64,000 nucleotides of DNA from Minisyncoccia bacterium (GTDB lineage: Bacteria > Patescibacteriota > Minisyncoccia > Phycocordibacterales > UBA9973). A program made the position numbers and the translations under genes. Numbering within the stretch: position 1 is the first letter of the stretch; each line of letters starts with the position of its first letter. The notes beneath the pieces are model-generated. The model had not been told where the DNA came from. It ran no database searches and worked only from the letters and a program-made list of their open reading frames with translations. The stretch is taken from NCBI GenBank assembly GCA_965656375.1, contig CBFHKH010000001.1:281319-345318 (forward strand), in the 5' to 3' direction. Shown piece by piece: positions 6,541-60,018 of this stretch.

Positions 6541-6577
6541 CAAATAACAAAATACAACCAAAGCAATTTGGTTGTAT
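6541..6577 (-). terminator. intrinsic terminator downstream of the DHS-like gene
   Basis: stem atacaacca/tggttgtat followed by T-run on the minus strand. Confidence 0.5.
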
Positions 6578-6604
6578 TTTGTCACATATTAATATGTCCG
6601 TCAA

Positions 6605-7624
6605 CTAGGAGATATATTTTGCAATCAACTCATTTGCTTCTTTTGGATTTGCTTTACACTCGAGAAGTGCTGTAAGCATGAGCGGCGCTACGATGGTAGC
6701 ATCTGATTCGATAACGAACATCGGGGTATCCTTTGTGAGTTTATCCCATGTGATCTTTTCATTTGGAGTCGCGCCTGAGTATGAACCATAGGAAGTGGTA
6801 GAGTCAGAAATCTGGCAGAAGTATGCCCATGGCTTTGCTTCCTGTTCCATATCGTACTTAAGCGATGGAACTACGCAGATCGGAAAATCTCCGGCAATAC
6901 CGCCACCTATCTGGAAGAATCCGATCCCCTCTTCTTTTGAAAGCTGTTGATATTGATCATAGAATGCGCCCATGTACTCAATGCCGCTTTTTGCAATAGA
7001 CGCACTCGCATCGCCATGCTTCACATGAGAAGCAAAGATATTTCCAAATGTTGAATCTTCATATCCTGGCACTACCATTGGAATATTATTCTCAGCTGCA
7101 GCAAGGAGCCAGCACTCCTCGGCCTTACCTTCATGTTTTTCCTTATCAAGAGTCTGAATTAAATCATAAAAGTATTCATGCCAGAATTTGCGAGTGCCAT
7201 CCTTGGTAGCTTGTTCCCATACTGGCACAATGTGTTTCTCAACAGCACGGAATGCTTCGTCCTCTGGGATACTTGTATCTGTAACACGACGCATACGATT
7301 CTCGAGGATCTTCGTATCATCTTCCTTTGTAAAATATCTGTAATCAGGGAAATCCTTGTACGAATCATGAGCGACAAGGCGGAAAAGCGATTCTTCTAGA
7401 TTCGCACCGGTAACAGACATACCATGGATAAGTCCTGCACGAATTGCGGGGGCAAGGACAATACCAAGCTGGGCTGATGACATAGCTCCTGCTACTGCCC
7501 AAAACATCTTGCCTCCTTTCTCTGCATGTCGCCAATATGCGATGAGTGCATCGCGTGTTGCGCGAGCATTAAAGTTCTTGTAATTCTTGAGCACAAATTC
7601 TAATGTAGGAAGATTGTTATTCAT
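6605..7624 (-). CDS. deoxyhypusine synthase-like protein (bacterial DHS-like homospermidine synthase type)
   Basis: length and motifs of the DHS family (GMSVTGANLEE, NAD-binding Gly-rich stretches, GGGIAGDFP). Confidence 0.7.
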   Translation of the reverse strand: MNNNLPTLEFVLKNYKNFNARATRDALIAYWRHAEKGGKMFWAVAGAMSSAQLGIVLAPAIRAGLIHGMSVTGANLEESLFRLVAHDSYKDFPDYRYFTKEDDTKILENRMRRVTDTSIPEDEAFRAVEKHIVPVWEQATKDGTRKFWHEYFYDLIQTLDKEKHEGKAEECWLLAAAENNIPMVVPGYEDSTFGNIFASHVKHGDASASIAKSGIEYMGAFYDQYQQLSKEEGIGFFQIGGGIAGDFPICVVPSLKYDMEQEAKPWAYFCQISDSTTSYGSYSGATPNEKITWDKLTKDTPMFVIESDATIVAPLMLTALLECKANPKEANELIAKYIS

Positions 7625-7659
7625 AGTTATAGTATATCACTTATAATATAGGCTTCACA

Positions 7660-7743
7660 AATTATATCCTGAAAAAAGTCCTCGGATCTCCTCGCACTAA
7701 ATTCTTAGAGGAGCGAGGCCAGACTATTTTTCAGGATATAATT
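7660..7743 (+). repeat. palindromic intergenic element, copy A (terminal inverted repeats tatatcctgaaaaa/tttttcaggatata; inner cctcgc/gcgagg)
   Basis: about 90% identical to the reverse complement of 13838-13913. Confidence 0.8.
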
Positions 7744-7753
7744 TATTTCGCTC

Positions 7754-9133
7754 TTACCAGCCAAAATTTTTCCCAACATCATCAGGAGTTTCTCTTTTAC
7801 GAGATACTACGATGTGTCCGTTTTCTGCGATCAATTTGAGTGGCGATGAAAGCATGCAGTGGTGAGCTGCGAGTGGATCTTGATACGCACCGGTGTCATA
7901 CACCACTATATACATTGGTTGGCCACTTGCGCTATCATAATCAGGTAAAGTCACTGTGCCATTGACTCCTGTGTAAATATCGTCAGAATCGCAACTCGAT
8001 CCAGCAAGCCAGACGTCATTGAGATCTGCATCATGTTTGTTGTTCGCAGGAGAAATCGCCCATTTTTGACCGATAGCCCATGTATCGAGAAGATCATTCA
8101 TGAAGCTTCCATCAATCACGTACCATTTCTTTGCTGGACTCTTTTTATTTTTAATTTCCTTTGTATCAATAATCTTGAACACTGTGATCTGGGCTGGTGC
8201 CACAATATAGCGCCCCCATTCACATACAAGATTCGGATGCGGAAGGCCCCGCTTTTCGGACTCCTGTTTAATAAGTTTAAATATTTTTTCCATGAGCTTG
8301 TCTACCGGATAGCTCTTGTTGCGAGTATATGGGATTGGCATTCCACCGCCGATGTCGATTGTATCGAGTGATGGATTCTTTTCTTTAATCTTGAAATAAA
8401 CATCAAGAGCATACTTTACCGGACCAAGGACATCAGAAAGCTTCTCAATTTGAGATCCAATATGGTAATGGAGAATTTTAAGGTTTTTAAATGACCCCAT
8501 GTCGATGATCTCTTTCGCAGAAAATCCAAATCGATCGATCGGCTTATTCCAGTGTGAACTTGCTTTGATTGGCATATCAAGGCGTATACCGACATCATAT
8601 TTTGAATATTGGAGGAACTTCAACTCATTTGGTCCTTCAATAAGTGGAAAAATCTTAACTCCTTTATGCTGAAGATCATCAATAAGTGATATATATTTGT
8701 CAGTCTTTGGACCAGAACAAAGAATCCGGATATTTGGATTGAAAGTCTCCTGCTCAAGCATTTTCTTAACAAGCCAAAGATCATTATATGAGGAAGTTTC
8801 AAGATGCGCACCTTCACCGACGATCGCCATCACCACTTCTTTATTTTGATTTACTTTCATCGGATAGTGGTAAAAGAATTTACCTTGATATCCAACTTTC
8901 TTTGAGAGATCTTTAGCAAGATCAAGAAAATCTTCCAGGCGTTCCTCGATAACAAACGGCATGAGTATTTCAAGCGATGTTCCAAATTTTTCCGCCATGT
9001 AGCGAACGTTATAAATATTGTGACCTTCTTTTATGATAAGGTCACCTTCCTTGTTGAAGTCAAAATATTGAGTGTTGAATTCCTTCGCACCTATCTTCCA
9101 AAGCTTCTTTGAAGCCACAGAACGTTTAGTCAT
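7754..9133 (-). CDS. PLP-dependent fold-III decarboxylase (arginine/ornithine/diaminopimelate decarboxylase family); arginine decarboxylase proposed from context
   Basis: HYHIGSQ, GGGMPIPY, CDSDD motifs characteristic of alanine-racemase-fold decarboxylases; adjacent agmatinase. Confidence 0.65.
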   Translation of the reverse strand: MTKRSVASKKLWKIGAKEFNTQYFDFNKEGDLIIKEGHNIYNVRYMAEKFGTSLEILMPFVIEERLEDFLDLAKDLSKKVGYQGKFFYHYPMKVNQNKEVVMAIVGEGAHLETSSYNDLWLVKKMLEQETFNPNIRILCSGPKTDKYISLIDDLQHKGVKIFPLIEGPNELKFLQYSKYDVGIRLDMPIKASSHWNKPIDRFGFSAKEIIDMGSFKNLKILHYHIGSQIEKLSDVLGPVKYALDVYFKIKEKNPSLDTIDIGGGMPIPYTRNKSYPVDKLMEKIFKLIKQESEKRGLPHPNLVCEWGRYIVAPAQITVFKIIDTKEIKNKKSPAKKWYVIDGSFMNDLLDTWAIGQKWAISPANNKHDADLNDVWLAGSSCDSDDIYTGVNGTVTLPDYDSASGQPMYIVVYDTGAYQDPLAAHHCMLSSPLKLIAENGHIVVSRKRETPDDVGKNFGW

Positions 9134-9235
9134 CTCTTTTTACCAAGCAACTCTCGTGCCTGTAATAAAATAATAATAAAGTCATAATAGCAAACTGAGA
9201 GGATATGTAAATAGAGAATCCATGTATTGCAAATC

Positions 9236-9272
9236 TATACTAAAAATGGCCTGCGTATTACCGCAAGCCATT
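9236..9272 (-). terminator. intrinsic terminator downstream of the 428-aa ORF
   Basis: aatggcctgcg/cgcaagccatt hairpin followed by T-run on the minus strand. Confidence 0.5.
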
Positions 9273-9282
9273 CTAATAAAAC

Positions 9283-10569
9283 TTAACATATCTCTGCATA
9301 AATTGTATGACTATTGCCATGCAGACGACCTGAATTTACTTCGTGTGAATCTATGGAGAGGCATTCTCTGTGCCCGCCAATCCACTTTGAAACTCCATTC
9401 ACCGTTGCAATAAAGACCCGATCAATATACGCATAGGTATGTTGGTCCATTTCATTTACTAATTGCGGCGCTTCGTGTTCCGGTTGCAATATATATGAAC
9501 CACGACTACGCATATTTTGCCGCAATTTTTTACGAAAGTTTCCGTCATTCAAAGAACCAGATATATGTCCATAGCAACCGAAAGTACCTTGAATTGGTTT
9601 AGCACGAATTCTCTTTTCAGTACCGTTAATTGATAACAATGAATCTATACCTGCGATTTCTAAATACTTAGAAAACTCACTCAGATACATAAGGCTTGCT
9701 TCGTCTTTCACTTCAAACCCCATACCCATAAGCGGCAGATATCTTTTTGTATCATTAATTCTTCGTTCATCAGTTTCTTGCCAGGCTGGATTATCAACAT
9801 TAAATGTAATGCTGTATTCCTTTATGATGCGTCTGATGGCAGAATCACTTAACAAGGGATGTTCTACTACTGTCTCGGGGCGCTTCAGCTTTTCAATTGG
9901 GTCGGATGAACGAACATACAGGAGATAACCACACTTTCCGCCATTCGACGAAAGATGTTGCAGGAACTCATCAGGCCCAAAGAATGCATCGAAACCTGAA
10001 AGATGCAGAACTTCTTCGTCAGATATGCTATCTTCTGAGCCTTTGCCGAATTCTGCTGCTTTCATAGCAACATATTTTTCCTTGGTAACTGCAAGAAGTG
10101 CGATAGGAAGGCTGTGCTTCGTACGCAAATCCTGCATCATTAATTTTGTCTCCTTGCTATACAAGGTAGACTGATTATCCGTTTCGCACGCTTTGGAAAG
10201 TAATTGATACAGTGCCCAATTATTCTCCATTTCAAATATTCGGCGTTTTAAAATTGTTTGCACTTCTTCAATCTTCATTATGGCCAATTCATCAAGCAAC
10301 TCGCTTGGTAAACCACACATGTCAATCTGTACAATCCAATTTATCGGATTACCATTTTGGTAGCAGTACCTGTAATCAGTCGGCCATTCACGGTTCGCTT
10401 TCACGAGTGAACCAAAAGCCTTGTTACATTCATCGTATATCTTACAAAGCGCATCAGTAACTACCTGAGGATACTTTACTTGATAATCGTTGAATGAATA
10501 CGTTGGTGAAAGCGAGGACTGTATAATTCCTGTTGTCACGCTAGAGTTTAATGGATGTTTCATTTTCAA
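9283..10569 (-). CDS. hypothetical 428-aa soluble protein, function unknown
   Basis: long ORF with strong coding look; no motif I can assign with confidence. Confidence 0.6.
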   Translation of the reverse strand: MKMKHPLNSSVTTGIIQSSLSPTYSFNDYQVKYPQVVTDALCKIYDECNKAFGSLVKANREWPTDYRYCYQNGNPINWIVQIDMCGLPSELLDELAIMKIEEVQTILKRRIFEMENNWALYQLLSKACETDNQSTLYSKETKLMMQDLRTKHSLPIALLAVTKEKYVAMKAAEFGKGSEDSISDEEVLHLSGFDAFFGPDEFLQHLSSNGGKCGYLLYVRSSDPIEKLKRPETVVEHPLLSDSAIRRIIKEYSITFNVDNPAWQETDERRINDTKRYLPLMGMGFEVKDEASLMYLSEFSKYLEIAGIDSLLSINGTEKRIRAKPIQGTFGCYGHISGSLNDGNFRKKLRQNMRSRGSYILQPEHEAPQLVNEMDQHTYAYIDRVFIATVNGVSKWIGGHRECLSIDSHEVNSGRLHGNSHTIYAEIC

Positions 10570-10616
10570 TTTTTTTAGTTTTGAGATATTTTTATCACAA
10601 GACTTAAGTTAAGTCA

Positions 10617-10646
10617 AGAAAAGCCGCTCAATCGAGCGGCTTTTCT
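10617..10646. terminator. hairpin aaaagccgctc-aatc-gagcggctttt between dnaJ and the upstream gene
   Basis: perfect GC-rich stem with flanking A/T runs. Confidence 0.6.
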
Positions 10647-10661
10647 AATAAGGTTTGTCAT

Positions 10662-11738
10662 CTAAATTCCCTCTTCTTTAAGTCTCTCTAACGCTTCTTT
10701 TGATTTCTTGGAAAGTTTTTTTGGCATCTCGATCTGTATACGGAGAATGATGTCACCTCGGCCGCGTGAAGATGGTACACCCTTGCCACGTACTCGAAGC
10801 AGTTCTCCATGATTAATTCCTTCAGGAATCTTTACTTCGACTATATTGCCTTCAAGAGTTTTCAAATCATATTTCATTCCGAGAAGTGCATCAGTAAGTT
10901 TGATAGGTAGATCCATTGTGAGATTTAATCCATCGCGTCTAAATGTTGGATGCACTCGTACATTGACTTTAATATACAGATCCCCAGCTTGGCCTCCTTG
11001 GATAGCTTCACCCATACTGGTCATGCGAAGCATTTCCCCTGCATTGATTCCTGCAGGAATTTTAAGTTCTATTTCTTCTTGTTTGTTGCGAACACCCTTA
11101 CCAGCACACTCCGTACATTTCTCTGAAGGAATCTTTCCATTTCCATGACAAACGTCACAAACCCGTCTTGATTCAAATGAACCAAGTATAGAACGCTTCA
11201 TTTCACGAATCTGGCCATTACCATTGCAAGTCTTGCACGTATCCATCTTGACACCAGGCTTGCCACCAGTACCTTTACAAATATCGCACACTGACTGTTT
11301 AGATAGTAAAATTGTTCGTGTCACACCGAATATTGATTCTTCAAAGGAAAGATCTATTTCCGTCGAAATATCCCTGCCACGGCGTGCTTGTTTGCTACTT
11401 CGCCCACCTCCAAAGAAATCGCCAAAAATATCTCCAAGATCACCCATGTCGAACTCTACACCACCGTTCTGAAACCCTGAAAAATCAAATCCTCCAAATC
11501 CACCTTGCGCACCTCCGTTGAATCCTTGTGGACCATCTGCACCAAAGCGATCATACTGCGCACGCTTCTGGTCATCTGAAAGGGTTTGGTATGCCTGGTT
11601 TACTTCCTTGAACTTCGAATCATCACCCTTGTTCTTATCAGGGTGGTATTTGTGTGCGAGCTTATGATACGCCTTTTTAAGCTCATCTTTCGATGCACCT
11701 TTTTGTACTCCAAGTATTTCGTAATAATCTTTTGACAT
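10662..11738 (-). CDS. dnaJ: chaperone DnaJ
   Basis: J-domain with HPD (KYHPDKN), G/F-rich linker, four CxxCxGxG zinc-finger repeats. Confidence 0.95.
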
Positions 11739-11780
11739 ATTTTATATTATACACACTAACGTATATCAACACCCTAATAT

Positions 11781-11902
11781 CGTACTTCAGTAAAATAGCT
11801 CCTCTCATAGGACACGCGTAAAATTCTGCTGAATTTTCTGCTCCGCTCGACTCCGTCGAGCCTGCGCGAGTTCCTGCTCAAGGACTATTTTACTTTTGTA
11901 CG
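11781..11902 (-). repeat. palindromic intergenic element, diverged copy C, between dnaK and dnaJ (terminal IRs cgtacttcagtaaaatag / ctattttacttttgtacg)
   Basis: shares the AGTCCT...CTCGC...aaattctg...gagcg core with copies A/B. Confidence 0.55.
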
Positions 11903-11913
11903 AAAACTTGAAT

Positions 11914-13806
11914 TTATTTTTGTTCTGGATTCTCGTTTACTTCAGCGTCTTTGATTTCTTCTGCCTGTTGTTCTGCAGTTGTACTTCCTTCTGGAGTTGT
12001 TCCTGCTTTTTGCATTGCTTCACCGATCTTCGATACTTCAGCAGTAAGAGCTTCAAGTGCGGATTTAATTGCGGTAATGTCTGTTCCTTCTTTTGCAGTT
12101 TTTACTGCAGCAATTTTCTCTTCTACACTTGTTTTAAGAGTCGCATCGATTTTATCTCCGTATTCTTTCAATGATTTCTCAGCTGAGAATATCATCATTT
12201 CTGCTGTATTCTTCTCATCGACAAGTTCTTTTTTCTTTGCATCTTCATCAGCATGAGCGACGGCTTCATCTTGCATGCGCTTAATATCTGCATCTGTAAG
12301 ACCAGATGATGCTTCGATACGGATTGATGATTCTTTACCTGATGCTTTATCTTTCGCTTTTACGTTGAGGATACCATTGGCATCGACATCAAATGTTACT
12401 TCAATCTGTGGCATACCACGTGGTGCTGGTGGAATATCACCAAGAATAAATCTTCCAAGTGATTTGTTGTCAGATGCCATTGGTCGCTCACCTTGAGTGA
12501 TGTGGATCTCTACAGAAGTTTGATTGTCAGCTGCCGTTGAGAATACCTGGCTCTTTGAGCTTGGAATAGTCGTATTACGCTCTACAAGCTTTGTAGCGAC
12601 TCCACCAAGTGTTTCTATACCAAGCGAGAGCGGAATAACATCAAGAAGAAGCACATCTTTTACATCTCCCTGGAGAACTCCTGCCTGAACTGCAGCACCA
12701 AGCGCTACAACTTCATCTGGGTTAATTGAACGGTTTGGTTCTTTGCCGCCAAAGAGCTTCTTGACTGCCTCTACAATCGCAGGCATGCGTGTTTGTCCAC
12801 CCACCATGATAATCTCATTGATTTCGTTCATTTTGAATGGTGATGCTTCCATTGCTCGTTTTGTAATCTCGATAGAACGAGTCACATACTCTTCAGCTAG
12901 AGTTTCAAGCGTTGCACGTGTCATTTTAAGCAGCAAATGCTGTGGACCTGCATCTGTTGATGTTATGAATGGGATGTTGATTTCTGTTTCTGGTGTAGTT
13001 GAAAGCTCAATTTTTGCTTTTTCTGCCGCTTCATCAAGACGCTGGAGGGCAAGTGGATCTTTCGTTACATCTACACCTGATTGCTTTTTGAATTCATCAG
13101 CAATCCAATTGATAATTTTTTGGTCAATATCACGACCTCCCATGTGTGAATCTCCATCTGTTGATTTCACTTCAATAACATCATTTGAAACTTCAAGTAC
13201 TGATACATCGAACGTACCACCTCCGAAGTCATACACAACGATCTTCTCATCTTTCTTTGTGTTGAATCCATACGCAAGAGCTGCTGCTGTCGGCTCATTG
13301 ATGATACGCTTCACATCAAGACCTGCAATCTGACCAGCATCCTTAGTTGCCTTACGCTGTGCGTCATTGAAATATGCAGGTACCGTAATGATTGCTTCTG
13401 TGATCTTCTCACCAAGTTTTGCTTCGACATCAGCCTTGATCTTTGAAAGGATCATTGCTGATACTTCTTCTGGTCGATACCACTTATCACCAATATTTAC
13501 TTCTGCTCCACCATCTTTACCTTTCTGAATTTTGAATGGTGCAGTTTTTTGAGTCTTTTGGATTTCTGGATCTTCGAACATGTGACCCATGAATCGCTTG
13601 ATACCGTAGATCGTATTTTGGGGATTAGTCACCGCCTGACGCTTCGCAAGAAGACCAACTAATCGATCACTATTCTTACCGATTGCCACAATTGATGGCG
13701 TTGTACGCTGACCTTCGATATTCTCAATAATTTTTGGCTGACCACCTTCAATGATGGCAACTGCACTGTTTGTTGTACCTAAATCTATTCCTATTATTTT
13801 TGACAT
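11914..13806 (-). CDS. dnaK: chaperone DnaK (Hsp70)
   Basis: [18 protein letters not shown], and full-length Hsp70 architecture. Confidence 0.97.
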
Positions 13807-13837
13807 AGTTTTATAAAGCGAAACAAATTATTTTATG

Positions 13838-13913
13838 AAAAACAGTCTGGCCTCGCTCCGCTCCAGAATTTTGTGCGAGGAGATCCGAGGACTTTTTTCA
13901 GAATATAATTTGT
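13838..13913 (-). repeat. palindromic intergenic element, copy B, immediately upstream of dnaK
   Basis: reverse complement about 90% identical to copy A at 7660-7743. Confidence 0.8.
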
Positions 13914-13940
13914 GGAGCTCAATTAATTAATAATATTACT

Positions 13941-14207
13941 TTATTTTTCTAAATCTGATGACTGCAATGGACTCGGAATCGGTGGTGCAGTCATATCTAT
14001 GACACCAAAATCTTTCTCATACTTTTCAATTTGTTGCATGAAAAACAGTGCGATACTTTTTGCTACTTGTGGTGAAGTTGCGAATGGATCGAGACTGTTA
14101 CCAGAAGCAATTGCAAACATTATTGCTTCCTTGTTGTATGCCCCAAGAGCTCCATCTGCGAACTTCTTTGGTAACTGATTAAAATCTACTTTTGTTGGAT
14201 CTACCAT
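13941..14207 (-). CDS. hypothetical 88-aa protein upstream of dnaK
   Basis: ORF only; no motif. Confidence 0.4.
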   Translation of the reverse strand: MVDPTKVDFNQLPKKFADGALGAYNKEAIMFAIASGNSLDPFATSPQVAKSIALFFMQQIEKYEKDFGVIDMTAPPIPSPLQSSDLEK

Positions 14208-14339
14208 ATATTTTTATGCCTTAATTTTAATAATTTTCGATTTCTAAAGTCATTATATAGGATGTAAATTATTTTGACAAGTATTTCGTGTCCGCAAAAT
14301 ATATGTTGATATTATATTTATAACTGTTATACTGTCAAT

Positions 14340-14885
14340 ATGGCAAAAAAACCATCAATACAGAAGGCTATTTTAAGGAGTATTTCTAGGAACAAGGCTA
14401 CTTCTTTGGAAAACGTAAAAAAAGATCTAGAAAAGGTTCTTTTGACCGATTCTGAGATGCAAAAAGGTAGCTATGCCATTACTCGCTCTATCAAAAATCT
14501 TCTTTCTGATGGCCTTATAGAGGCCTTTAATTCAGAGCATAAGCAGTACTTTAGACTTACCGGTAATGGAAAGCAAAGACTCAATAATATTGCACTTGAA
14601 GCTGAAGGGGGGCTTATATCTACAAAATGGGATGGGTACTGGAGAATAGTGCTTCTTGACCTTCCCGAAGATCGTAAAAGTGAGCGCGAAGCACTCCGTT
14701 ACCTTCTCAAAAAAGCTGGCTTCATTTGCATCAAGAATTCGGTCTGGGTGTCAATGTATCCATTCGAACATCTTTTCACAAATATAAAAAAAGATCTCAG
14801 TCTTACGACAGAGATGATGATCATGGTCACTGATAAACTTGACAGAGATACTGAAGTCGAATTTCTAAAATTGACTCAAAAATAA
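14340..14885 (+). CDS. winged-helix transcriptional regulator, PaaX-like (wHTH + Cas2/VapD-like C-terminal fold)
   Basis: N-terminal HTH-like region; C-terminal WDGYWRIVLLDLPEDRKSEREALRYLLKKAGFICIKNSVWVS matching the PaaX C-terminal pattern. Confidence 0.5.
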   Translation: MAKKPSIQKAILRSISRNKATSLENVKKDLEKVLLTDSEMQKGSYAITRSIKNLLSDGLIEAFNSEHKQYFRLTGNGKQRLNNIALEAEGGLISTKWDGYWRIVLLDLPEDRKSEREALRYLLKKAGFICIKNSVWVSMYPFEHLFTNIKKDLSLTTEMMIMVTDKLDRDTEVEFLKLTQK

Positions 14886-14903
14886 AACTCCAATACTGGA
14901 GTT

Positions 14904-15494
14904 TTATTTTTGATATTCAAAGATAGTTACTCGCGCAGGACGCACTACTCGCTCGCCTATCTTAAATCCTGCTTGGATTACTTTTTCAATTGTATGATCT
15001 TTTGATTGATCGTCAGTCGGGATACTTTCGATAGATTGGTGGAGATTCGGATCAAATAAAACATTTGTCTTGTCAATTTTTTCTATCCCTGAATCAGCAA
15101 GTCCAGTTATGATCTGCTGGTAAATATATTCCACACCAGTACGCCAGTTTGGATCAACTTTTTCCCACGCATCTTTATTCCCCATTGCCATATCAAAACT
15201 ATCAATCGCCGGAAGTAGGTTTTCTACCATCTTTTCTTTTGTGATGATTGATGTAGCGCTTCTCACTTGATCCATTTCTTTTTGAAGATTTACATAATCG
15301 GCTTTTGCTCTTTGCCAGCCTGTCAAATATTCCTCTTTATCTAGACGGGCTTGTTTTAAATCATCGCGAAGTTTCTTTGCTACATCTTTTGTAGGTAGCG
15401 AATCTCCATCTTCTGTACTTGGAACAACTTCGACATCGTCAAATGCTTCCAAGATTTCTTCTTCTACATTTTTTGACTTGTGTTCATCACTCAT
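14904..15494 (-). CDS. grpE: nucleotide exchange factor GrpE
   Basis: coiled-coil N-terminus, LLPAIDSFDMA and C-terminal GERVVRPARVTIF beta-domain. Confidence 0.85.
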   Translation of the reverse strand: MSDEHKSKNVEEEILEAFDDVEVVPSTEDGDSLPTKDVAKKLRDDLKQARLDKEEYLTGWQRAKADYVNLQKEMDQVRSATSIITKEKMVENLLPAIDSFDMAMGNKDAWEKVDPNWRTGVEYIYQQIITGLADSGIEKIDKTNVLFDPNLHQSIESIPTDDQSKDHTIEKVIQAGFKIGERVVRPARVTIFEYQK

Positions 15495-16754: not shown

Positions 16755-16792
16755 ATTTTAATTATAGACTTATACTCAGTTGATGCAAGACA

Positions 16793-16826
16793 ACAAAAAA
16801 CATCCCTACAAAAGGGATGTTTTTTG
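16793..16826 (-). terminator. intrinsic terminator downstream of rpsI
   Basis: aaaaaacatccct-acaaa-agggatgtttttt. Confidence 0.6.
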
Positions 16827-16829
16827 TTG

Positions 16830-17240
16830 TTAACGTTTTGACCACTGTGGTGACTTTCGAGCCTTCTTGAGACCGAATTTCTTTCGCTCAACTTGGCGAG
16901 GATCACGCTTAAGCATTTTTGCTTTCTTTAGTGGTGTGCGGAGTTCTCCATCAAAGAGAACGAGCGCACGTGAGATTCCATGACGTACAGCTTCTGCCTG
17001 TGCATGTGAGCCACCACCTTTTGTTGTGACTACTACTTCAAATTTCTCACTCGGAGCTGAAGTTTCAAATGCGCCAGTAACAATTTTCTTGAGCTCTGCT
17101 GTTGGGAAATATACTGCGAGATCCTTTCCATTTATATCGTAGCTTGTCTTTGAAGCTTTGATGAGTTTTACAACCGCGGTCGCAGTTTTTCGGCGGCCGA
17201 TTGCTCTGAAGTATTCCTTTGTAGATGTTTTCTTTTCCAT
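16830..17240 (-). CDS. rpsI: 30S ribosomal protein S9
   Basis: GGGSHAQAEAVRHGISRAL motif, C-terminal KKAR...KR. Confidence 0.9.
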   Translation of the reverse strand: MEKKTSTKEYFRAIGRRKTATAVVKLIKASKTSYDINGKDLAVYFPTAELKKIVTGAFETSAPSEKFEVVVTTKGGGSHAQAEAVRHGISRALVLFDGELRTPLKKAKMLKRDPRQVERKKFGLKKARKSPQWSKR

Positions 17241-30249: not shown

Positions 30250-30288
30250 AAAAAGAAAATCCCTCTGATCAGAGGGATTTTCTTTTTA
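30250..30288. terminator. hairpin gaaaatccctctgatcagagggattttc with flanking A/T runs
   Basis: perfect 12-bp stem; abuts the stop of the 30289 gene. Confidence 0.6.
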
Positions 30289-44448: not shown

Positions 44449-45396
44449 ATGTACGATTTAATTATTCTCGGTGGAGGACCAGCAGGAACAGCTGCAGCTG
44501 TGTACGCTGCTCGTAAACAATTAAAAACAGCGATCATTACTGCCGAATTTGGTGGCCAATCTACCGTATCTGAACTTATATATAACTGGATCGGTACTCC
44601 TGAAATTTCCGGAGCAGATCTTGGTAAAAATTTGAAAGCACACACGTTATACTACAAAGGTCCATATCTTGATGTCTTTGATGGTGAAAAAGTGACGAAA
44701 GTTACCAAAGACAAAAATGGTGTTGAAGTAATCACAGAAGGAGGTACTACATATACATCCCACGCTCTTCTTGTGGCCACAGGTAGTGGTAGACGTAAGC
44801 TCGATGCAGTGAATGCAGATCAATTCGAACATAAAGGTATTACCTACTGTGCATCATGCGATGGTCCACTATTTGCTGATCAGGATGTGCTTGTCATTGG
44901 TGGAGGTAACGCTGGATTCGAAACAGCCGCGCAACTTCTTGCCTACTGCAAGAGTGTTACACTCATTCATCGTAGTGCGGACTTTAAGGCGGATGAGATT
45001 ACTGTAAAAAAGATACTTGAGAATCCGAAGTTCAAAGCTATCACTAATGCAGACATACTTCGTGTCGATGGCCAGCCTGCGCAGGCAGGCGAGCTACAAT
45101 TTGTTGGTTCGCTGACCTATAAAGACAAGCTCACTGGACTAGAACATTCGATTGAAACCACAGGAATATTTGTCGAAGTTGGTCAGATACCTAATACTGA
45201 TTTTATGAAAGGTGTAGTAGATATAGATACAGGCGGCAAGCTCATCGTCGACCCTATGACTCAAATGACCTCAGTTGCTGGTATTTGGGCCGCGGGTGAT
45301 TGCACAAATGGTAGATATCATCAAAATAATATCGCTGCCGGCGACGCTGTCAAAGCTCTCGAAGATCTCTATATCTGGATACAGAAGAATACATAA
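44449..45396 (+). CDS. trxB: thioredoxin-disulfide reductase
   Basis: FAD GGGPAG, redox CASCDG, NADPH GGGNAG; start at MYDLIIL (the supplied ORF begins 8 codons earlier). Confidence 0.9.
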   Translation: MYDLIILGGGPAGTAAAVYAARKQLKTAIITAEFGGQSTVSELIYNWIGTPEISGADLGKNLKAHTLYYKGPYLDVFDGEKVTKVTKDKNGVEVITEGGTTYTSHALLVATGSGRRKLDAVNADQFEHKGITYCASCDGPLFADQDVLVIGGGNAGFETAAQLLAYCKSVTLIHRSADFKADEITVKKILENPKFKAITNADILRVDGQPAQAGELQFVGSLTYKDKLTGLEHSIETTGIFVEVGQIPNTDFMKGVVDIDTGGKLIVDPMTQMTSVAGIWAAGDCTNGRYHQNNIAAGDAVKALEDLYIWIQKNT

Positions 45397-45428
45397 CAAA
45401 AAAGACTGCAGAAGCAGTCTTTTTTGTT
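45397..45428. terminator. bidirectional hairpin aaaaagactgc-agaa-gcagtcttttt between convergent trxB and the GlmU-like gene
   Basis: perfect stem flanked by A-run and T-run. Confidence 0.7.
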
Positions 45429-46185
45429 ATGTATTCGTTATTAAGATTTTTTCAAGTATTTCTAGTTCAGCTTTTGAATTTGGTTGTAAACCTTCAATAA
45501 TATTGGAAACTGGAACAGCCTCAATTTTCTTACTTTGATCACACGCAATCTTGATGAGGTCAGTTAAGTAGTACTCCCCTTGTGCATTTTCATTTTTAAG
45601 TGAATCTATATTTTTCCAAAGCCATTTTGTATCAAATGCATATAAAGCAGGGTTCAATTCTTTTATTCTCTTTTCATCTTCAGTTGCATCTTTGAACTCA
45701 GTAATTTTTTTTACTGATCCATCAGAGTCACGAATGATTCTACCAAAGTTCGTATACAGACCTACTCTCCAATCTTTAAAGTCAGGAACAACAACTGTTC
45801 CTATGGTAATCGTTGGGGTTTTCTCTATATGAGTTTTAATAATGTTTTGTATCGTTTGCATTGAAATAGTAGGTTGGTCGGCTGATATAACGAGAGTTAT
45901 ATCATTCTCTGGGTTTACAGATTCTTTTGCAGAAAGAACAGCATGACCTGTACCAAGCTGCTCTTTTTGAACAGCATATGTGTAACCATCACCAAGAGCT
46001 TCACGAATATAATCCCCCTTCTGACCTATGACTATAACTGGTTTGTCACAGACACCAGATGACTCAATAGTGTCTAAAATATGCTCAATAAACGGCTTTC
46101 CATTAAGTGGAGTGAGAGCCTTTGGTATTTCAGATTGCATTCTTTTACCGTGTCCTGCAGCAAGTATTATAATTTGGGTTTTCAT
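45427..46185 (-). CDS. UDP-N-acetylglucosamine pyrophosphorylase-like nucleotidyltransferase (GlmU N-terminal domain only; no LbH acetyltransferase domain)
   Basis: ILAAGHGKRMQSEIPKAL, QLGTGHA, EYYLTD motifs of GlmU uridyltransferase domain; start may be the upstream ATG at 46227. Confidence 0.65.
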   Translation of the reverse strand: MKTQIIILAAGHGKRMQSEIPKALTPLNGKPFIEHILDTIESSGVCDKPVIVIGQKGDYIREALGDGYTYAVQKEQLGTGHAVLSAKESVNPENDITLVISADQPTISMQTIQNIIKTHIEKTPTITIGTVVVPDFKDWRVGLYTNFGRIIRDSDGSVKKITEFKDATEDEKRIKELNPALYAFDTKWLWKNIDSLKNENAQGEYYLTDLIKIACDQSKKIEAVPVSNIIEGLQPNSKAELEILEKILITNT

Positions 46186-48334: not shown

Positions 48335-50213
48335 TACGAGCTTCGAGTGCTACCCAGTAATCATAATTTCCAGTCCAGGTATCTTTTTGATAGTAACGTT
48401 CTTCGAGAATAACAGGAGACTGTATATCATCAACTGTCTCAACTCCTGCTTCATTGGCAATTCTGATAAGCGCGTTTTTTATAGCAATGTTTCTTGCCGC
48501 AGAGTATCCAGTACTCACACCAGAACCAATTGCTCTATAATAATTTGCATCAGATGTATATGTTGATTTGAGTGGATCTTTCTTACCACTTTCATTGCTA
48601 ACTTCTGGTATTCCCCCACTTACACTCCCTATTGGCTTGAGTGTACAATCTGCTGTTCTACCCCCTTTTATAGGCGCTCGTGCATCCATCCAAACATAAT
48701 AATTCTTCGTTTCTTTATCATATGCAGTAAGCATTCCATACTGTGCAGGTAAGTTCTGAGCAGTTTTTTCTTCAAGTAGATTATTGTCAGAAAGGAACGC
48801 TTTTCGCATTTTTGTTTTTATTTCCGTGAGAGCTCCAAACTCAGTAGTGCTTTTACCATAATCTTCCTTCCTCCAGCAAAGTGCGTTTGGTTCGTATTTT
48901 TGAAGAAACGGACTTTTTGTAAAATCTTTTATAGTGTTTTTAAGTACAGTCTGGCTGAGGTTAATCTCATCACTTGTAGCAGCAATCTTTGAGAACAAGG
49001 TAGATTCTGGCATCTCTCGCGCTTCTTTGCCTTTTACAACTGTAAGCTTAGATGCTGAACAATCCGATACCGTACCTGTACTTTTTGGTGCTCTCGCATC
49101 AAGCCACACATAGTATTTACTCGTTTTATTATTATATAAAATTATAGTCGTATAGAGTATCGGGTAATTTGCTTTGATCACCCCTGTTGTATCAGCGATC
49201 TTTGCATATTCTGCCTTCGCGCGTGTTCGTGCTTTTTCAAGAGCATCATATTCTGTTTCTGCCTCGCCCGGAACAGGCATCACCCAGCAGAGATTACTTG
49301 GTTCGTACGTTGCAAAGGGGCTCGTTGTATAGAACGTAAGCGGCAAATCTGGAGTCTCTCCGCTACTACTAATATTCTGCGATGAAAACACTGCTGCTTG
49401 GGGAATGACTGGAGCCTCTTTTAAAACCTTAAGAGTATTACAATTTTTCTCCATAGTCCCTTGTCCAATCGGAGCTCTGACATCAAGCCACGCATAATAC
49501 GTCCTTGTAGTCACGTCATACAACACCTTCGATCCAAACACTACAGGATAAGCTTTTTTACTCACATCTTTGTCGGAGATGTTATTAATTCGAAGGTATT
49601 CAGATCGAGCGAACTTCTTTACTTGATCAAGTGCATCATATTCTGTATTTGATTTCATTGGATATGCTTCTCTCCAACAAAGCGCATCTTTTTGATATGT
49701 TGGGAATGGGCTTGTAGTGAATGTTGCTTGTGGGAGCTTGGGAGTACCTGTAATAGTGCTAATGTCTTTGACGTCTGTCGTATCTCCAAAGCCAAGACCA
49801 GTGCCAGTATTATCTGCAATATCTCTATCCTTAACATCCACACCAGTAACTACAAAGTCGCCGTTATTATTAACTTTTATCTTATTCTCTCCGATAGTAG
49901 AGAGAATGATTTTCATAATACCGAATACAGCGGTCATAATAAAAAGACCAAAGACTCCCCATATCATAATTGACTTACTTTTCTTATGGACTTCTTCATT
50001 ACCCGGCGAAAGCAGGTAACGGGTAAGTCCATAAAGAAAATACGCCATAGCACACGCAAACATGAAAATAATGATAGGGTTAATAATAACCCTATCAATA
50101 CTTTTCATAAGAGTTGTAAGACTCGCTTCTGCAACTGGAATGATTTGAAAATCAACCATGGATGTTTGATTAGCAGATGACGCCTGGACCAGGGATACAA
50201 GGGATTGCATCAC
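48330..50213 (-). CDS. large surface protein: N-terminal VirB2/TrbC-like pilin module fused to a triplicated about 120-aa Cys/Trp-containing ectodomain plus distinct C-terminal domain
   Basis: N-terminal ...FLYGLTRYLLSPGNEEVHKKSKSIMIWGVFGLFIMTAVFGI like the four upstream paralogs; three repeats with ...LCW...TEYDAL...YY(A/V)W(L/M)D(V/A)RAP; true start may be the internal MVDFQ. Confidence 0.6.
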   Translation of the reverse strand: MMQSLVSLVQASSANQTSMVDFQIIPVAEASLTTLMKSIDRVIINPIIIFMFACAMAYFLYGLTRYLLSPGNEEVHKKSKSIMIWGVFGLFIMTAVFGIMKIILSTIGENKIKVNNNGDFVVTGVDVKDRDIADNTGTGLGFGDTTDVKDISTITGTPKLPQATFTTSPFPTYQKDALCWREAYPMKSNTEYDALDQVKKFARSEYLRINNISDKDVSKKAYPVVFGSKVLYDVTTRTYYAWLDVRAPIGQGTMEKNCNTLKVLKEAPVIPQAAVFSSQNISSSGETPDLPLTFYTTSPFATYEPSNLCWVMPVPGEAETEYDALEKARTRAKAEYAKIADTTGVIKANYPILYTTIILYNNKTSKYYVWLDARAPKSTGTVSDCSASKLTVVKGKEAREMPESTLFSKIAATSDEINLSQTVLKNTIKDFTKSPFLQKYEPNALCWRKEDYGKSTTEFGALTEIKTKMRKAFLSDNNLLEEKTAQNLPAQYGMLTAYDKETKNYYVWMDARAPIKGGRTADCTLKPIGSVSGGIPEVSNESGKKDPLKSTYTSDANYYRAIGSGVSTGYSAARNIAIKNALIRIANEAGVETVDDIQSPVILEERYYQKDTWTGNYDYWVALEARK

Positions 50214-58614: not shown

Positions 58615-58646
58615 TTAAAAAATCCCCTCTATGGGGATTTTTTAAT
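58615..58646. terminator. bidirectional hairpin aaaaaatcccc-tctat-ggggatttttt between convergent rpsA and pth
   Basis: perfect stem flanked by A6/T6. Confidence 0.7.
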
Positions 58647-59229
58647 TATATAAACTCATTGCTTTATCTTTTCCGCCATTTGCGAGCGTAGAAAGAATCT
58701 CGGTAACGAGTTTTGATTGCTTCTTCAAAGTTTTGAGTTCATCTTCTTTAAATGCACCGAGAAGAAACTTCAGAACTGCCTGTTCCCCACTCGGCTTCTT
58801 GAGCTTGCCTGTCGGAGTGTGCGGCGAGACACCGATACGAATACGAACGAATTCTTTTGATTTTACTTTTTTGATTATAGATTCAACACCATTGTGCCCA
58901 CCACTTGATCGGTTGAAGGATATCTTTAGACTTCCTACTGGAATATCGAGATCATCATAGACAACGACAAGGTTTTTCAATTTCTTTTTATCATCTATAA
59001 CTTGTGCGACTGCATTACCAGAATTATTCATAAATGTCTCTGGTAACATGAAATCAAACTTCTCTCCTTCTACTTCGCCTTTTGCGCGAAGAGATTTTGT
59101 TTTCATATCATTCTTCCAATCTGAAAATTCTTCTGCGTTCGCAATGTGTTCCAAAATAATTCGCCCGGCATTGTGCCGAGTCTTTGCATATTCTTCTCCC
59201 GGATTTCCAAGTCCAACAATTAACATCAT
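58642..59229 (-). CDS. pth: peptidyl-tRNA hydrolase
   Basis: MLIVGLGNPGEEYAKTRHNAGR, HNGV motif. Confidence 0.9.
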   Translation of the reverse strand: MMLIVGLGNPGEEYAKTRHNAGRIILEHIANAEEFSDWKNDMKTKSLRAKGEVEGEKFDFMLPETFMNNSGNAVAQVIDDKKKLKNLVVVYDDLDIPVGSLKISFNRSSGGHNGVESIIKKVKSKEFVRIRIGVSPHTPTGKLKKPSGEQAVLKFLLGAFKEDELKTLKKQSKLVTEILSTLANGGKDKAMSLYN

Positions 59230-59252
59230 ATGACATATAGTAACAAATTTAT

Positions 59253-59346
59253 ACAGAGTATGCTAAAGGGGGTTTTGAGCGTGTCGACGCGAAAACTTCA
59301 GAATTTTTTAAGCTTCAAAAAATTCGTACTCTTTAACATACTCTGT
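59253..59346. repeat. nested palindromic intergenic element D (terminal IRs acagagtatgctaaag/ctttaacatactctgt; inner gaatttttt-aagctt-aaaaaattc)
   Basis: architecture, and the cgcg..aaaattctg core (on the reverse strand), resemble elements A-C. Confidence 0.5.
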
Positions 59347-59418
59347 GTAAATTTGTAAGGCTACAACACAGAAATATCTATTCTGTCAATACACGTTGTA
59401 TGGTATTATAATGCCTAT

Positions 59419-60018
59419 ATGGAAAATAATATCATAGAGAAACCGGTAGAAGTCGAACAGTCAAAGTGGAAAAAGCATGCAGCAGGTGCGTGGGATTTGG
59501 TAAAGTTCGCAGCTATCGCTCTTGCGATTGTGATCCCTATTCGTCTCTTTATTGCGCAACCATTCGTTGTTTCTGGGGATTCAATGTTCCCTACATTTCA
59601 TAATGGGCAATACTTGATTGTCGATGAGATCTCATATATCGTCAATGGTCCGCATCGCGGTGATGTTGTGATATTCAAATACCCGAACGATCCGTCACGT
59701 TACTTTATTAAACGTATTATCGGAATGCCAAATGAAACGATCACATTAAATAATGGCACTGTCACAATTAGCAATGCTAAAAATCCTGAAGGCTTTACTT
59801 TGAATGAACCGTACATAAATGAAACATTTAACGCCACTCACACCTACACTACCAAAAGCGATGAATACTTCGTAATGGGTGACAATCGTAATCGCAGTTC
59901 TGATTCCCGTTCATGGGGATCTCTTCCCCGAAAACTAATGATAGGGAGAGCATATTTGAGACTTCTCCCTGTCGCAGATGCAACATATTTACCAGGAGCA
60001 TACACAGAAGAAAAATAA
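59419..60018 (+). CDS. lepB: signal peptidase I
   Basis: SGDSMFPT (Ser box), KR box YFIKRIIGMP, GDNRNRSSDSRSWG. Confidence 0.9.
   Translation: MENNIIEKPVEVEQSKWKKHAAGAWDLVKFAAIALAIVIPIRLFIAQPFVVSGDSMFPTFHNGQYLIVDEISYIVNGPHRGDVVIFKYPNDPSRYFIKRIIGMPNETITLNNGTVTISNAKNPEGFTLNEPYINETFNATHTYTTKSDEYFVMGDNRNRSSDSRSWGSLPRKLMIGRAYLRLLPVADATYLPGAYTEEK

Follow-up and report, generated by a model that had tools for sequence, protein, structure and literature searches.

A probable family of non-autonomous, hairpin-shaped insertions in Patescibacteria, with copies beside the dnaK and polyamine-pathway genes

The analysed window is a stretch of 64,000 nt from a Minisyncoccia bacterium (GenBank CBFHKH010000001.1, positions 281,319 to 345,318), with a GC content of 38-43% and a DnaK whose nearest named homologues belong to Candidatus Paceibacterota and Nomurabacteria. 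Its chaperone region contains grpE, a PaaX-like gene, an open reading frame (ORF) of 88 amino acids (ORF88), dnaK, dnaJ, a gene without an assigned product, and genes resembling an ornithine/arginine decarboxylase and a deoxyhypusine synthase (DHS) (Table 1). Three palindromes lie in the spacers of this region. Element A is situated between the stop of the decarboxylase-like gene and the start of the DHS-like gene, element B between ORF88 and dnaK, 12 nt ahead of the start codon of dnaK, and element C in the dnaK-dnaJ spacer. [quoted passage not shown]

The likeness of A and B was borne out. Positions 7634-7752 match the reverse complement of 13817-13936, and after trimming, 90 of the 101 aligned columns are identical (89%); aligned locally, they score 148, where 500 dinucleotide shuffles gave 16.9 +/- 2.4. 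The shared core is represented by a 21-mer and a 16-mer, each found at just two places in the window, namely A and B, and the inner CCTCGC/GCGAGG helix is found in both copies. The inverted repeats are likewise present: the arms of A are perfect over 18 nt, and those of B are imperfect (76% over 33 nt). The predicted fold of A has an energy of -36.8 kcal/mol (z = -6.3), and that of B has a z of -2.2. The ends of A were set by comparison with the empty site in one related contig (L057) and the filled site in another (L056). R1, a covariance model built from the family described below, reports A and B alone in the window, and the next matches, at 27 bits or less, are ordinary long AT-rich hairpins.

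Table 1 Features of the window and copies of element C in other contigs (positions are those of the window unless a contig is named)
Feature	Position	Strand	Remarks
DHS-like gene	6605-7624	-	Pfam
Copy A, whole element	7652-7751	+	R1, 90.7 bits, E = 2e-18
A, 5' end motif GCTTCAC	7652-7658	+	GC closes the hairpin; TTC forms one strand of the 3x3 internal loop at the base
A, 5' arm	7659-7676	+	18/18 complementary to 7727-7744
A, core 5' half, AGTCCTCGGATCTCCTCGC	7677-7695	+	exact 19-mer
A, core 3' half, GCGAGGCCAGAC	7713-7724	+	
A, 3' arm	7727-7744	+	pairs with 5' arm
A, 3' end motif TTTCGC	7746-7751	+	
Ornithine/arginine-decarboxylase-like gene	7754-9133	-	Pfam
Gene without assigned product	9283-10569	-	
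dnaJ	10662-11738	-	
Element C	11780-11903	.	between dnaK and dnaJ; ~85-nt conserved branched core, variable arms
dnaK	11914-13806	-	start codon at 13806
Copy B, whole element	13818-13918	-	R1, 87.8 bits, E = 1e-17
B, core 3' half	13845-13856	-	
B, core 5' half	13875-13893	-	
ORF88	13941-14207	-	88 amino acids
Promoter TTGACA-16-TATAAT	14338-14311		12/12 matches; upstream of ORF88
PaaX-like gene	14340-14885	+	sole plus-strand gene around the palindromes
grpE	14904-15494	-	
Element D	59243-59356		26-nt arms, 92% complementary, 62-nt centre; between divergent genes 58642-59229 (-) and 59419-60018 (+)
Long AT-rich hairpins	19-52, 1878-1916, 6547-6582, 14876-14913, 16790-16830, 30250-30287, 45387-45436, 63492-63539		gene ends
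C orthologue	L056 11910-12025		
Further C copies, groundwater metagenomes	L060 7650-7775; L061 1100-1225		other arms and flanks

An obvious question is how widely this element occurs. The core 19-mer AGTCCTCGGATCTCCTCGC was scanned exactly against one genome per species (185,579 species), which yielded 51 loci: 47 in 32 Patescibacteria species genomes and four in other phyla. In all 47 Patescibacteria loci, the 3' core follows shortly downstream, either complete or interrupted; in the other four, the rest of the element is missing, and we consider them chance matches. The hosts are labelled Paceibacterota, Nomura-, Adler-, Vogel- and Zambryskibacteria, with some Saccharibacteria, and are mostly Paceibacteria. 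The motif GCCAGAC, though outside the query, is retained in 43 of 49 copies. When R1 was applied to 340 kb of the seeded loci, just two additional diverged copies were found: a second copy within the same PheT gene (L045) and a copy with a "type 2" core, GTCCTCGGAT-GAGGGAGGACAAGGA-GCCAGAC (L022). Comparison of the type 2 core with type 1 defines the invariant module as GTC CTC GG AT ... G CC A GAC. Viral carriage of the element was rejected, since viral sequences gave one match to the type-1 core, attributable to chance, and none to the type-2 core.

From its 5' end, the element consists of (G)CTTCA(C/T), a variable 5' arm, AAAAAGTCCTCGGATCTCCTCGC and a variable tip of 2 nt up to a 40-nt extra hairpin, followed by GC(T/G)(C/A)GGCCAGAC(A/T)TTTTT, a 3' arm that pairs with the 5' one, and (C/T)TTCGC. 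The core is a conserved asymmetric apical module, GTCCTCGGAT...GCCAGAC, composed of a GTC/GAC helix, a CTC-versus-A loop, a GG/CC helix, an ATCT bulge and a CCTCGC/GC(T/G)(C/A)GG helix that carries the tip; in intergenic copies, it is surrounded by A5-6 and T5-6 runs. In the folds, the GC at one end pairs with the GC at the other, leaving TTC opposite TTC as a 3x3 loop, and the element is thus one long hairpin. The conserved spots are the few asymmetric ones (the basal loop, the CTC-versus-A loop and the ATCT bulge), which give the hairpin a polarity.

The arms vary in sequence and are maintained as a helix of fixed length. In an alignment of 45 copies, 18 of the 24 arm pairs had changed on both sides, so that covariation across relatives, proposed as a check, is present; 81.8% of the arm positions are paired, versus 38-51% with the partners slid, and none of 500 shuffles reaches the observed covariation. 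Irrespective of arm sequence, the distance from the start of the end motif to the core is 25 nt in 19 of 23 copies (24-26 nt in 21), and the arms may be entirely different between copies within one genome (L002, L016, L022 and L034). The GC content of the arms ranges from 7 to 78% and follows that of the host (rho 0.61, p = 7e-6), while the core is constant, being identical in hosts of 31 to 56% GC. In copy A, the differences from the subfamily consensus are clustered in the 3' arm and give it full complementarity to the 5' arm, which is the signature expected from template switching within a quasi-palindrome. Template switching within quasi-palindromes is a known process by which arms could covary without selection. 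RNA selection specific to one strand was rejected for the arms, as the mismatches show no bias (GT/TG 32 vs AC/CA 41). The reverse strand of the element folds better than the forward strand owing to tandem G.A loops; this counts as one observation, since it reflects the shared core.

The presence or absence of the copies at orthologous loci was established from contigs of DnaK relatives in which the gene order grpE, PaaX-like, (ORF88), dnaK, dnaJ, ..., decarboxylase, DHS is kept. L056 (DnaK 95% identical) has orthologues of A and B (91.8 and 91.1 bits) and of C, whereas L054 (95%), L057 (93%), L058 (91%) and L059 (87%) have none of the three, and the covariance model reports no family copy anywhere in these four loci. 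The empty spacers, measured at intact sites, are short and AT-rich: 29-38 nt between ORF88 and dnaK (L054, L057 and L058), 20-22 nt between dnaK and dnaJ (L057 and L059) and 22 nt between the decarboxylase and DHS genes (L057). When filled sites are aligned with empty ones, the extra segment corresponds to the complete hairpin with both end motifs, placed into AT-rich DNA. Similarity among the A and B copies of the window and of L056 is 86-94% throughout, orthologues being no more alike than paralogues. Two other modes of origin, insertion of the core into a pre-existing terminator hairpin and formation of the arms as inverted copies of the target, were rejected because the empty sites lack a hairpin, A and B share arms at different loci, and the intragenic inserts include both arms.

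The copies show no link to particular genes, as their contexts are unrelated and all orientations occur. Intergenic copies are oriented about randomly with respect to co-directional flanking genes (10 vs 8), and nine copies lie between divergent genes. T-runs are longer in intergenic than in coding copies (5.5 vs 3.3, p = 6e-6), a difference to be expected if copies between genes can terminate transcripts and long T-runs are disfavoured within genes. Copy A, which directly follows a stop codon, probably terminates the decarboxylase transcript; a simple terminator scan calls none of A, B and C.

Of the 49 copies, 19 fall within long ORFs, in which the frame is kept open without a stop codon. 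Three forward frames (KSSDLLA, KVLGSPR and SPRISS) and one reverse frame (SEEIRGL) are used. By Pfam, ten host ORFs encode PolA, a class I aminoacyl-tRNA synthetase (aaRS), a RecJ-like DHH protein, LigA, PheS, PheT (in two species, one of which holds two copies), Tgt, MnmA and a class V aminotransferase. The eleventh confirmed host, identified by homologue annotation, is TrmD, with the same insertion position in three species. Of 18 coding copies, 15 read in the forward sense; on its reverse strand, the element holds GAGGAGAUCC, which resembles a Shine-Dalgarno sequence, and the bias possibly arises from avoidance of this motif inside genes. Split genes around "intergenic" copies were sought as well, and all five co-directional flanking-gene pairs proved to be distinct genes.

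The TrmD site allows the fate of an insertion to be followed. A one-query search gave 120 close homologues of 224-271 amino acids, among which the aligned site occurs in empty (KKILKKKN), type-1 filled and type-2 filled forms, in forms with a flipped core (SGRAIS...SEEIRG) and as decayed remnants (RFLKSS only, or ARP only). These states indicate that insertion, inversion between the arms and decay have gone on at this site for a long time. A neighbour-joining tree of TrmD, made for dating the insertions, resolves the intermixed states too poorly to be used.

Another important question is whether the core is conserved in place or merely appears so through its detection. Because conservation of a core found by its own 19-mer is partly circular, TrmD orthologues were picked by protein similarity only. 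Among the type-1 orthologues, AAG TCC TCG GAT CTC CTC GCC is unchanged in three of four, and GCC AGA is present in all. We then compared codon use in columns with an invariant amino acid: 113 of the 136 columns of the host TrmD vary in codon (pairwise codon difference 50%), as do five of the seven in the element outside its core (arms, loop and end motifs; 41%), compared with one of the eight in the core itself (5%). Since synonymous positions are frozen there while host codons are saturated, the core appears to be constrained as nucleic acid at the resident TrmD site; this codon pattern suggests constraint on the nucleic acid itself.

Several individual copies have further peculiarities. In three genomes, a nested insert of ~27 nt, CCCAGTAGGTCATTCTACTGAATGAGA, splits the 3' core at GGCCA|GAC (L028 6612-6636, L030 2574-2598 and L042 221-245); it is a sub-family or an element within an element. 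In L037 (3232-3330), the CTTCGC end motif of the Tgt copy is directly followed by a second partial 3' core, TCGGCCAGACATTTTCATCAGG, which looks like a tandem or rearranged partial copy. The class I aaRS ORF with an element in L011 (5487-7997) also matches His_Phos_1 over residues 517-684 in the same open frame. At the TrmD site, other lineages have unrelated inserts (YELRIKN..., HPTL...KRGIK and ...EVQPL...KRFC in P0031, P0046, P0062, P0075, P0077, P0095 and others), which suggests a hot spot accepting several kinds of insertion.

Contrary to the original prediction, element C resembles A no more than chance allows and falls outside the A/B family. Its local score against A is 18, where shuffles give 16.3 +/- 2.2 and 127 of 500 reach it, and R1 reports no match to it at E <= 10 with filters off. 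By itself, C is a strong palindrome, with predicted energies of -49 to -51 kcal/mol (z = -7 to -8). In addition to the L056 orthologue, a metagenome scan with a conserved segment of C found two further copies in L060 and L061, and L057 and L059 lack C between dnaK and dnaJ. Over these four copies, two inner hairpins show compensatory changes; one of them reads AAAATTC/GAATTTT in the window, AAAAATC/GATTTTT in L056 and L060, and AAAATCT/AGATTTT in L061. Since these hairpins covary, C can be assigned to a second family of palindromic insertions that follows the same plan, and it is apparently this shared plan that the genomes tolerate or propagate.

Do the copies around dnaK control the chaperone genes, as operators or as an RNA thermosensor that replaces HrcA/CIRCE and is possibly bound by the PaaX-like protein? 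The positions of B, just ahead of dnaK, and of C, between dnaK and dnaJ, invite this view, and the CIRCE consensus (TTAGCACTC-N9-GAGTGCTAA) is indeed unmatched in the whole window, even with up to three mismatches, as had been stated at the outset. The PaaX-like gene lies between grpE and dnaK in all six related loci, and this constant location makes its product a candidate regulator of chaperone genes in a lineage without CIRCE. However, B and C are missing in four of the five related lineages (DnaK 87-95%) with the gene order unchanged. What is conserved is the sequence farther upstream: the PaaX-like/ORF88 spacer (14208-14339) hardly varies among five lineages (the window, L056, L054, L057 and L058) and contains a double promoter, consisting of the perfect site listed in Table 1 and a second, near-perfect tandem site (TTGTCA-17-TATAAT). 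Among these five lineages, the window and L056 are filled, and three lack the element. Because the promoter region is conserved with or without the element, B and C are best read as recent insertions inside the ORF88-dnaK-dnaJ unit and not as conserved control sites. Moreover, A lies between polyamine-pathway genes, ~45 other copies flank or sit in unrelated genes, only two of about 50 examined copies adjoin dnaK, and the hairpin of B leaves the start codon uncovered, with no Shine-Dalgarno sequence to mask. We therefore regard chaperone control, one of the two functions originally proposed, as extremely improbable. Scarcely better placed is an intron-like element, in which the hairpin would be excised from the transcript and its ends rejoined so that the protein never carries the insert. 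The long basal helix, the conserved loops at both ends, the essential host genes and the nucleotide-level conservation would agree with such a process, but the frame is open in all 19 intragenic copies and in all TrmD length variants, across four frames, which would be needless if the insert were removed from RNA. None of the five co-directional flanking pairs is a split gene, no Rfam ribozyme or intron model matches, and the base lacks a bulge-helix-bulge geometry, so that this explanation, too, is very improbable.

A more serious alternative, which we put forward tentatively, is a domesticated structured signal, in which a host protein would bind or process the core in DNA or RNA and purifying selection would keep the core locus by locus, with mobility accounting for its spread only. 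The core might act as a topological or nucleoid site in the manner of REPs, define the ends or the stability of transcripts, or serve as a determinant for a nuclease. Such a signal would agree with the frozen synonymous sites in TrmD, with a core that stays constant across host GC contents while the arms ameliorate, and with the fixed arm length and conserved asymmetric loops, which template-switch correction of the kind visible in copy A would otherwise erase. The longer T-runs of intergenic copies, as expected of transcript ends, and the better-folding reverse strand with its tandem G.A loops also fit. On the other hand, no partner protein was identified, the orientation of intergenic copies is near-random, nine copies lie between divergent genes, close relatives lack the element at the same sites, the arm mismatches have no strand bias, and concerted evolution or repeated replacement could imitate constraint. 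The signal and the mobile-element reading can hold together.

We consider it likely that A and B are copies of a non-autonomous, hairpin-shaped insertion family of ~100 nt that is specific to Patescibacteria (Paceibacteria and their neighbours). This is backed here by family membership, arm covariation, fixed geometry, insertion polymorphism, in-frame copies and nucleotide conservation of the core. Several findings weigh against it. No target-site duplication is seen between filled and empty sites at A and B; in the flanks of 23 copies, the longest direct repeat averages 1.30 nt, versus 1.15 +/- 0.28 with shuffled flanks, and there is no target motif. A family-wide terminal inverted repeat was not found, as only the GC and TTC end motifs recur. 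No transposase, partner protein or autonomous version was found among the 47 loci; the ten window ORFs around the palindromes and 20 host or flanking ORFs in other loci contain no transposase-like Pfam family, although no genome-wide RAYT search was made. The copy density is low, with two copies in the 64 kb of the window and two extra in the 340 kb of seeded loci, and, the query having been exact, ascertainment accounts for part of the 5' core conservation among the 47 loci. The frozen TrmD core is not predicted by a purely selfish, decaying repeat and suggests a cis or host function or concerted evolution. Translation of the intragenic copies is inferred from open frames only, and the AlphaFold model of TrmD with its insert is mediocre (mean predicted local distance difference test score of 65); the insert is placed with low confidence between a helix and a strand, which is weakly compatible with a tolerated loop.

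If the insertion-family reading is correct, the mobile unit would comprise a two-pair GC clamp, a 3x3 TTC/TTC loop, a variable helix of fixed length ending in an A-run and a T-run, and the conserved apical module. The whole hairpin would insert into AT-rich DNA without target-site duplication, and insertions would survive in spacers or in frame in tolerant protein loops, where they would be read through and translated. From the invariant core, the free sequence but fixed length of the arms and the frozen synonymous sites, it can be argued that a protein recognises the folded nucleic acid: such a protein would read the tip and the basal loop by shape and distance rather than by terminal sequence, and it would either move or bind the element. 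Arm complementarity may be renewed by template switching within the palindrome, and B and C would be recent passengers in the ORF88-dnaK-dnaJ operon rather than regulators.

Among known systems, the resemblance is closest in behaviour to the Rickettsia palindromic elements (RPEs), which are described in PMC10969869, citing Ogata et al. 2000, as palindromic repeats of roughly 100-150 nt found in spacers and in frame in housekeeping genes, with no known transposase. Both families occupy reduced genomes and lie in spacers and, unusually often, in frame, adding a peptide. The hosts belong to different phyla (genus Rickettsia versus Patescibacteria), so that the RPE is a functional analogue set beside the A/B family by description. 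In contrast to RPEs, the A/B family conserves an apical core and two small loops while leaving the arms free, yields no single peptide, as four frames are used, and is constrained at synonymous sites of the core.

In essence, the MITE- or REP-like reading was borne out. The spread over loci and species, the presence/absence polymorphism and the lack of a link to particular genes agree with it, and like the MITEs Correia, ERIC and BOX, the element is short, non-coding, multi-copy and hairpin-forming and may carry terminator-like or promoter-like sequences. However, the definition of a MITE calls for target-site duplications and for terminal inverted repeats that it has in common with a parent insertion sequence; neither was found in the A/B family, and no parent insertion sequence was seen in the 47 loci. 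With the RAYT-associated REP/BIME/REPIN elements, the family shares GC-rich imperfect palindromes, bulges that give polarity, the lack of target-site duplication, presumed recognition as folded DNA and a possible role at transcript ends or in transcript stability. REPs are characterized in PMC3733652 as extragenic, high-copy, species-specific sequences of 20-40 nt with a GTAG or CGTC tag; the A/B element differs from them in being ~100 nt long, low-copy, often intragenic and conserved across a class, and neither A nor B contains GTAG, CTAC, CGTC or GACG.

Integron attC sites resemble the element in principle only, in that recognition seems to rest on a folded structure, fixed spacing and unpaired bases that confer polarity, with a free helix sequence. 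In attC sites, the ends are conserved and the centre is variable, and they mark cassette boundaries in arrays beside an integrase and are not intragenic. The attC boxes R''/R' (RYYYAAC / GTTRRRY) have no counterpart here, as GCTTCAC and TTTCGC are unpaired in their central three bases and the copies are dispersed singly. K-turn, bulge-helix-bulge, attC and tRNA-like cores were set aside because their defining positions misfit, a judgement made by eye. Rfam at gathering thresholds reports only three tRNAs in the window, and its E-value mode also assigns no family; the best sub-threshold match on A, a plastid 3' UTR model, reaches 24 bits against a threshold of 61.7. As for the evolutionary pattern, superfamilies of short interspersed elements (SINEs) have, according to PMC4758252, a central domain conserved over very deep divergence and flanking parts that differ by family; SINEs are eukaryotic retroposons and not hairpins, and the analogy is limited to this pattern. 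In the literature covered, which is partial, we found no description of such elements in Patescibacteria, and an earlier description is possible.

Other features of the window were noted. Element D was examined as a relative of A; its 20.7 bits come from the hairpin alone, its core is absent from all fetched loci, and the relationship was rejected. Long (16-23 bp) perfect AT-rich hairpins flanked by A-runs and T-runs occur at many gene ends; they look like bidirectional terminators and are similar to the arms of the A/B family. At 48673-49651, three direct repeats with a spacing of 384-414 nt and 74-76% identity over 38 nt, together with a second repeat family in register with them, suggest a gene with tandem repeated domains. 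The leaders of dnaK and its neighbours (13806-13840, 7624-7652 and L054 9972-10003) are AT-rich and lack a recognisable Shine-Dalgarno sequence, with the element present or not; translation starts in this lineage may be independent of this sequence.

For the window itself, the tempting interpretation of the dnaK region as a site of chaperone control is removed. Patescibacteria have tiny genomes and few recognised mobile elements and form a large, uncultured part of the bacterial tree, and a class-wide hairpin element that alters loops of essential enzymes would give their proteins and genomes a new means of varying; among the enzymes concerned are DNA polymerase I, DNA ligase, aminoacyl-tRNA synthetases and enzymes that modify tRNA. 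Such an element would account for odd insertions and "extra" segments in the gene calls and protein alignments of these genomes, and it provides a ready marker for lineage and insertion polymorphism. It is possible, though we hold this view with considerable doubt, that the element represents a previously undescribed class of hairpins at least as old as Paceibacteria, in which the core and the basal loop are read by shape at a fixed distance and the core is under purifying selection in place even in essential genes. If so, this would be either a new kind of structure-guided, duplication-free transposition or a domesticated, genome-wide nucleic-acid signal, with the family of C as a second, independent example; identification of the recognising protein would reveal which new route of transposition or new host signal is involved.

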